Assembly (NCBI RefSeq): GCF_003334255.1
Contig: NZ_QOWU01000035.1
Length of the DNA: 55,376 nt
From: Escherichia coli
Lineage (GTDB): Bacteria > Pseudomonadota > Gammaproteobacteria > Enterobacterales > Enterobacteriaceae
Strand: one strand, 5' to 3'
The notes beneath the pieces are model-generated. The model saw nothing but the letters and a program-made list of their open reading frames with translations. It was not told the origin of the DNA and made no database searches. Shown here in pieces: positions 41,262 to 42,091 of this stretch. A program made the position numbers and the translations under genes. Within the stretch, counting starts at the first letter, position 1. Each line of letters begins with the position of its first letter.

Positions 41262-41544
41262 GGAAGAAGTTTTTGTAAGCCCGCTCAGGGTCTTTCAGTG
41301 ACTGTTGCAATGGCTGTGAGGGCGAATCTTTAAGCCATTGCGTTTCAGTGGCATTTTTCCACTCAACCAACCAGGAAGCCATTTTCCCGTAAGGGATGTA
41401 TTTATTACCGGCCTCATGATTCTCATTCTGAAGCGCCAGAGCACGATTGAAAACGAAACGACATGCGCCTGCGAAGCGCCTCATTTCACGCTCCTGTTGA
41501 CCACCTGGTCTTAACCGGAATTTGAATGCCTGTAGTCGTTTCAT
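41262..41544 (-). pseudogene. tnpB: tnpB (IS605 OrfB/TnpB-type) 5' fragment, about 95 codons
   Basis: Translation MKRLQAFKFRLRPGGQQEREMRRFAGACRFVFNRALALQNENHEAGNKYIPYGKMASWLVEWKNATETQWLKDSPSQPLQQSLKDPERAYKNFFR matches the TnpB N-terminal region as I recall it; the RuvC-like and zinc-finger regions are absent. Confidence 0.7.
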
Positions 41545-42090
41545 GGGCCAAATCATACTTTGGCCTATGAAAAAAGAAACCGATATCCGACGCGGAAGGC
41601 ATTGTGTTTTCCTGAAGCATGTTCACCTAGTCTTCGTTACTAAATACCGACGTCAGATTTTTGACCATGACGCGACAGAAAAACTACGCACTTACTTTTC
41701 AAATGTATGTGCTGATTTTGAAGCTGAACGGGTTGAAATGGATGGCGGACCAGATCACGTCCATTTGTTAATTAACTATCCTCCCAAACTGGCGATATCC
41801 AGTCTGGTAAACAGCCTCAAAGGCGTATCGAGTAGGTTACTGCGACGAGATCGACCAGATATTGCAGTCAGGTATTACGACAAAGGCGTTTTGTGGAGTC
41901 CTGGCTATTTTGTCAGTAGCTGCATCTTAACGTATCAACTAGATTTAATAACAACGATATCCGTACCTAACCGGATATCTAATGTCATAAGCATCCCTTT
42001 AATTATCCCCTCAACCTCTTGTAACTTTCCCACTCTTGAGCTCCACATAGTCCAAACGCCGGATGCAAAAAAATCACACGTGCATTTCTG
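41262..42090. mobile_element. IS200/IS605-family insertion sequence remnant (divergent tnpA and 5' fragment of tnpB); boundaries approximate
   Basis: Divergent ORFs encoding a HuH Y1 transposase (TnpA) and the first ~95 residues of a TnpB-type protein, fused directly to yedK codon 142; the right boundary cannot be fixed from sequence alone. Confidence 0.7.
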
Positions 42091-42091
42091 A
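41567..42091 (+). CDS. tnpA: IS200/IS605-family transposase TnpA (HuH Y1 transposase); C-terminal ~55 residues look atypical, possibly truncated or fused
   Basis: MKKETDIRRGRHCVFLKHVHLVFVTKYRRQIFD...GPDHVHLLINYPPKLAISSLVNSLKGVSSRLL...YYDKGVLWSPGYFVSSC contains the HuH motif (HVHLL) and catalytic Tyr region; the ORF runs to 42091, longer than the ~140-155 aa typical of TnpA. Confidence 0.7.
   Translation: MKKETDIRRGRHCVFLKHVHLVFVTKYRRQIFDHDATEKLRTYFSNVCADFEAERVEMDGGPDHVHLLINYPPKLAISSLVNSLKGVSSRLLRRDRPDIAVRYYDKGVLWSPGYFVSSCILTYQLDLITTISVPNRISNVISIPLIIPSTSCNFPTLELHIVQTPDAKKSHVHF

Follow-up and report, generated by a model that had tools for sequence, protein, structure and literature searches.

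Genomic setting

The window, i.e., the whole 55,376-nucleotide stretch of DNA that was analysed, is a chromosomal segment of Escherichia coli that runs from cheB/cheR through the flagellar regions to fliJ. A remnant of an insertion sequence lies within it, between yedE-yedF-yedK on the left and ybcM-ybcL-emrE-fliE on the right. The window is collinear with the chromosome of strain 7/2 (NZ_CP023820.1) except near fliC, and its positions 41200–42150 are 100% identical to the 28Eco12 chromosome. In the fliC-fliD region (window ~33900–38800), the window and strain 7/2 are either 88% identical or unaligned, compared to 98–99% identity in the flanks, a divergence that fits a different flagellin (H-antigen) allele. 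A scan of the whole window at the Rfam gathering threshold returned the sRNA C0465 (5218–5295, plus strand, in the tar-cheW intergenic region; 111.6 bits) and three tRNAs, all of which lie outside the remnant.

To the left of the remnant, yedK is reduced to a 5′ fragment of codons 1–142 of 222 (40836–41262, plus strand; NCBIfam PRK09951 covers positions 1–143 of 222). This fragment aligns to the intact yedK genes of strains ATCC 25922, C8, and 08-00022, and it is fused to the insertion sequence; past the fusion, the reading frame continues out of frame to a stop at 41333. RefSeq labels the fragment as a partial pseudogene. The right-hand neighbour, outside the element, is the AraC-family regulator gene ybcM (42248–43045, minus strand, from the RefSeq annotation of an identical locus). 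It belongs to a ybcM-ybcL-emrE module (42248–44107, minus strand) that lies between yedK and fliE without surrounding phage genes. The content of the yedK-fliE interval depends on the strain: C8 and 08-00022 carry IS609 there, and ATCC 25922 has an ompC-like porin gene and no insertion sequence at the same site. In K-12, we take ybcM, ybcL, and emrE to be part of the DLP12 prophage and other genes to fill the yedK-fliE interval.

Extent and identity of the IS609 fragment

We searched the whole window by blastn with a region containing intact IS609 (L002, the reference locus from O157:H7 strain TT12B). A single match was obtained, at positions 41260–41923 (664 bp, 95.8% identity; L002:2499–3162), confirming the IS200/IS605 remnant that an earlier note on this DNA had recognised. 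The name IS609 is taken from the RefSeq product name of the intact L002 TnpA (“IS200/IS605-like element IS609 family transposase”) and from PMC6963479. Comparison of the O157 and K-12 copies gives IS609 a length of ~1,753 bp, and full copies measure 1,748 bp in a published table (PMC6963479); the central 38% is all that the window holds, with neither end present. The earlier note had extended the element over 41262–42091. That span is IS-derived as far as 41923, and its remainder (41924–42091) is non-IS DNA; the alignment reveals an internal IS609 fragment rather than a complete known element with a naturally short second ORF, the arrangement that would have contradicted that note.

No other part of IS609 was found elsewhere in the 55-kb window by blastn. 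A splitting of the element by inversion or insertion was ruled out on the basis that the missing parts are absent from the window, and an assembly artefact was ruled out because the same junctions recur in over 1,100 independent complete genomes. The remnant is already known: a 664-bp “IS609 (truncated) inserted within yedK” is listed in PMC6963479, with the same length, the same locus, and no material difference from the window, in a genome that matches the window at 100% identity over this region. That source lists the fragment only; our analysis adds the chimeric ORF and its loss of the catalytic tyrosine, the read-through tail, the junction microhomologies, and a series of locus states.

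Intact IS609 of O157:H7 encodes a TnpA of 143 aa (WP_000604943.1) and a TnpB of 402 aa (WP_000826430.1). It has in common with the remnant the divergent genes with 7 bp between their start codons, the HUH motif, the HTH domain of TnpB, and the palindrome at the start codons. Relative to this copy, the remnant has lost ~1,090 bp, including both hairpin ends and the omega-RNA region; it is without TnpB residues 96–402 and TnpA residues 125–143, and its native tnpA ATG is mutated. The K-12 copy, comprising insQ and a tnpA pseudogene between ydcO and ydcL, is 95.0% identical over the fragment. Its tnpA has decayed too, by an internal stop; unlike the remnant, however, it is full length and possesses both ends and an intact 402-aa InsQ/TnpB.

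The tnpB fragment, the start-codon palindrome, and the element ends

The 5′ fragment of tnpB (41260–41544, minus strand) retains 95 of 402 codons and aligns to residues 1–95 of the intact protein, which agrees with the truncation after ~95 codons described previously. HTH_OrfB_IS605 is the only Pfam domain in the fragment, and the match to NCBIfam guided_TnpB (positions 1–89 of 389, 75 bits) falls under the cut-off of 100. Intact IS609 TnpB also contains OrfB_IS605 (162–277) and a Cas12f1-like TNB domain (304–370), both of which are deleted here. The RuvC-like domain and the 3′ omega-RNA end, likewise reported as missing in the earlier note, are absent from the whole 55-kb window. Neither the window nor the intact IS609 copy yielded an omega-RNA or IS605-type RNA family at the Rfam gathering threshold.

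The tnpA-side end of intact IS609 contains a subterminal hairpin (L002 3233–3274; −19 kcal/mol as DNA, z −4.2) and the tnpB-side end a weaker related hairpin (L002 ~1535–1565); the motif CCCTGAAGGACG is common to both, and both lie outside the retained segment. IS609 end sequence was not detected by blastn anywhere in the window. Folding of the element ends, which had been suggested as a check, gave no subterminal hairpin at the edges of the remnant, and these edges fold no better than shuffled sequence (z −0.06 to −1.2). With both ends and the RuvC and zinc-finger parts of TnpB absent, the element is predicted to be immobile and to provide no TnpB nuclease activity, as was proposed at the outset, and no omega RNA.

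A 14-bp inverted repeat (TTTCATGGGCCAAA / TTTGGCCTATGAAA, with a 6-bp spacer; 41539–41572) extends over both the start codon of tnpB and the ATG annotated for tnpA and, based on a comparison of five copies, is inherited from IS609. Compared to intact IS609, an identical C-to-T change has occurred in both arms, converting GTG to ATG on both strands. One change breaks a pair and one repairs a pair, such that 13 of the 14 pairs are kept. The repeat may serve IS609 as a regulatory operator or as an RNA hairpin; alternatively, templated quasi-palindrome mutation may account for it.

A chimeric tnpA reading frame

Codons 1–124 of the 143 codons of tnpA are retained (41552–41923, plus strand), as delimited by a codon alignment of six copies and by profile matches that are cut at their C-terminal end. 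RefSeq annotates a tnpA ORF at 41567–42091 (plus strand; WP_001347174.1), the 174 aa of which do exceed, as the earlier note had remarked, the 143 aa of TnpA in genuine IS609. The HuH motif described in that note was also recovered, as PDHVHLL (H64-V65-H66 of the 174-aa ORF, codons 41756–41764), and Pfam Y1_Tnp matches the ORF with an E-value of 5e-33. The further descriptions of TnpA as full-length and intact over its conserved core do not hold. The Y1_Tnp match covers model positions 2–106 of 121, and the match to NCBIfam NF033573 (124 bits, cut-off 55) covers positions 2–112 of 126, whereas intact IS609 TnpA covers positions 2–126. Homology to IS609 in the DNA alignment stops at 41923, directly after the Cys124 codon (IS609 numbering), and 19 residues that contain the catalytic tyrosine Y135 (GGAPISAIRQYIEQQQTPG) are deleted. 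In place of GGAPISAIRQYIEQQQTPG, the ORF continues with 55 residues beginning ILTYQLDLITT, so that it comprises 119 TnpA residues (124 from the native start) followed by 55 read-through residues.

Comparisons with solved structures place the end of the homology in the same region. Alignments of the ORF to TnpA structures in the PDB end at ORF residues 118–122, and the matches end at chain residue 115 of IS608 TnpA and at chain residue 120 of ISDra2 TnpA. Residues 16–141 of intact IS609 TnpA align to residues 11–133 of IS608 TnpA (2a6m); judged from the ends of these matched ranges rather than from a residue-level alignment, G125/G126 of IS609 probably correspond to G117/G118 of IS608 and Y135 to Y127. 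In IS608 TnpA, Y127 is the nucleophile and lies on helix αD, this helix hangs on a flexible loop with G117/G118, and the protein is inactivated by Y127F or by loss of αD (PMC3597680). By this correspondence, the window ORF is predicted to be devoid of the Gly-Gly hinge, the αD helix, and the catalytic tyrosine, and it does not qualify as a full-length TnpA.

The start of the gene has changed as well. The native tnpA ATG (41552–41554) reads ATC in the window and ATT in AVS0536, which represents a second remnant haplotype. The annotated ORF begins at 41567, where the window has ATG and intact copies have GTG. The IS haplotype of the window type also contains a V substitution in GYFVSSC. We observed that RefSeq/PGAP annotates WP_001347174.1 and WP_032143406.1 as intact “IS200/IS605 family transposase” proteins, whereas the adjacent fragments of yedK and tnpB are flagged there as pseudogenes. 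The ORF receives this label because it passes the NF033573 cut-off despite the missing catalytic tyrosine; this score cut-off is permissive, and the label that results from it is a misleading artefact. Censuses of insertion sequences that count such RefSeq entries will overestimate the number of active TnpA genes.

The last ~55 residues of the ORF, which the earlier note had suspected not to be a conserved TnpA tail, are encoded by non-IS intergenic DNA. This tail of 55 codons and a stop codon (41924–42091, plus strand) lies downstream of ybcM in strains with and without an insertion sequence at the site. In ATCC 25922, which lacks the insertion sequence, the same stretch is unannotated and contains the same open frame ending at the same stop codon. 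As the frame is open in that genome, the long ORF is an accident of read-through; no selection is needed to explain the openness of the tail, since it is equally open where no insertion sequence is present. A perfect hairpin with an 8-bp stem (GATATCCG...CGGATATC, 41956–41979) lies inside the tail, ~270 bp downstream of ybcM; with the T-rich run that comes after it on the minus strand, it resembles a terminator. We considered whether it is a hairpin of an IS end and rejected this, given that it lies in non-IS DNA and also occurs in a genome without an insertion sequence here.

An older layout of the locus and the deletion junctions

Strains C8 and 08-00022 have a longer arrangement at the same site, in which yedK is intact and is followed by a near-complete IS609, ~650 bp of spacer, and ybcM-ybcL-emrE-fliE. 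Their IS609 has the same site and orientation as the remnant and is 95% identical to it over the common 664 bp. It differs from the remnant in its length (~1,630 bp), its 387-aa TnpB, the presence of the tnpA-side end, and the intact yedK beside it. The near-complete copy is itself degraded, with ~110 bp of the tnpB-side end already gone and tnpA a pseudogene by internal stop or frameshift; hence, in the older form, one end of the transposon was already missing, as was the scaffold region of the omega RNA. In the near-complete copy (L005 2760–3923, L006 2808–3971), TnpB has 387 aa compared to 402 aa in intact IS609, and there is a 16-bp overlap between its 3′ end and the end of yedK.

The window equals the 08-00022 layout minus two segments: 1,111 bp from yedK codon 143 to tnpB codon 96, and 650 bp that begin at tnpA codon 125 and end in the DNA downstream of ybcM. 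A three-way comparison with the older locus (L006) locates an exact microhomology at each junction. The left junction falls in CCG (3 bp, 41260–41262), which is contained in ~14 bp of imperfect similarity between yedK and tnpB (41260–41273); the corresponding blastn ranges overlap at 41260/41262–41273. The right junction falls in GTAGCTGC (8 bp, 41916–41923), which is common to tnpA and the DNA downstream of ybcM, with blastn ranges that overlap at 41902–41923. These junctions point to microhomology-mediated illegitimate recombination or replication slippage as the probable origin of the deletions.

Distribution among complete genomes

Junction-spanning queries of 141 bp were used to count the remnant among 5,426 complete E. 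coli genomes. Of these, 1,111 carry the left junction and 1,109 the right one, and ~1,091 have the older layout (coverage of at least 80%). An alternative count of 2,083 genomes, obtained at coverage of at least 80%, was rejected as a measure of remnant carriage, as it includes genomes with near-complete copies, the two matching pieces of which had been merged into a single place. Among these 5,426 genomes, the junction queries revealed none that carries one deletion without the other. At least two remnant haplotypes exist, which are 2.4% apart. Variants were also found, namely a remnant with an IS5 element inside it in one genome and a further truncated remnant in another (H173, H193). Carrier genomes usually contain other copies of IS609 (2–3 places per record).

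Origin of the remnant

We consider the remnant to be a non-functional relic of one IS609 copy downstream of yedK that two microhomology deletions cut to its middle 664 bp, and we assign this reading a probability of about 93%. An ancestral E. coli would have acquired a single IS609 copy just downstream of yedK. The 1,111-bp deletion, with its crossover in CCG, would have removed the last 80 codons of yedK together with ~290 codons of tnpB; yedK was thus inactivated by the same deletion that cut IS609 tnpB. The 650-bp deletion, with its crossover in GTAGCTGC, would have cost tnpA its final 19 codons, and with them the hinge and the tyrosine helix; the tnpA-side end, which bears the subterminal hairpin, and ~550 bp of the spacer would have been lost as well. 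The remaining tnpA frame would then run on by chance for 55 codons into intergenic DNA, and it is this run that makes the ORF long and seemingly intact. Both genes and both ends, rather than the tnpB side alone, are predicted to be disabled, and the fragment is presumably without activity. Its position and orientation indicate that it is probably the same insertion as the near-complete copy in other strains.

Two observations sit less easily with this reading. In two haplotypes, the frame of the chimera has stayed open, with tnpA pN/pS below 1, and the remnant is slightly nearer to the O157 copy at another locus (95.8% identity) than to the C8 copy at the same locus (95.0%). The first of these might be expected of a domesticated, catalytically dead TnpA, i.e., a translated 174-aa chimera that binds hairpins or forms heterodimers and acts in a dominant-negative manner on resident intact IS609. 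If this were so, the chimera would be a naturally arisen dominant-negative transposase that dampens IS609 transposition. The ORF is open in both haplotypes despite their divergence of 2.4%, it occurs in ~20% of complete E. coli genomes, and other IS609 copies are usual in its carriers. By analogy with IS608, the retained part would contain the TnpA body that binds DNA as well as the dimer interface, and the Y127F mutant of IS608 TnpA still forms complexes (PMC3597680). However, the native start codon is lost, a consensus scan of 41100–42300 found no sigma-70 consensus promoter, and the chimeric ORF has no obvious ribosome-binding site. The pattern of substitution in the tnpA part (pN/pS 0.29–0.46) is indistinguishable from that in the adjacent dead tnpB fragment (0.22–0.54; Nei-Gojobori method, 8–18 substitutions only), and the two remnants differ in the tnpA part by 4 synonymous and 4 non-synonymous changes. 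Moreover, genomes without the fusion also have the tail frame open, by chance, the IS5-disrupted and further truncated remnants exist, and the frequency of the remnant is explained by vertical inheritance within lineages. Across promoter, start codon, and pN/pS, we saw no positive sign that the chimeric ORF would be functional, and we regard its domestication as highly improbable.

The nearness to the O157 copy bears on whether the remnant and the near-complete copies descend from one insertion at all. The 664 bp might have arrived already truncated through recombination with foreign DNA, or a separate insertion at the site might have decayed on its own. Copies at the same locus (95.0%) are no closer to the remnant than those at other loci (95.0–95.8%), and the genomes queried contained no single-deletion intermediates, both of which would suit such an origin. 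Yet the position and orientation are the same, with tnpB towards yedK and tnpA towards ybcM; the layout of C8 and 08-00022 and two simple microhomology deletions explain both junctions exactly; and insertion by the TnpA pathway is impossible for a fragment without ends. An independent origin consequently has, in our estimation, almost no claim to be the right account, and we retain descent from the older IS609 copy by two deletions.

Decayed IS fragments are numerous in E. coli, and the remnant, as one of them, carries little biological weight. The count of left junctions implies that yedK would be a pseudogene in ~1,111 of the 5,426 complete E. coli genomes; an inactivated yedK in approximately one fifth of these genomes is relevant when YedK is studied in those strains. 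YedK is an SRAP abasic-site cross-linking protein with His160 as an acid-base catalytic residue (PMC9436759); the truncated yedK of the window (142 of 222 residues) has kept Cys2 and Glu105 and has lost His160.
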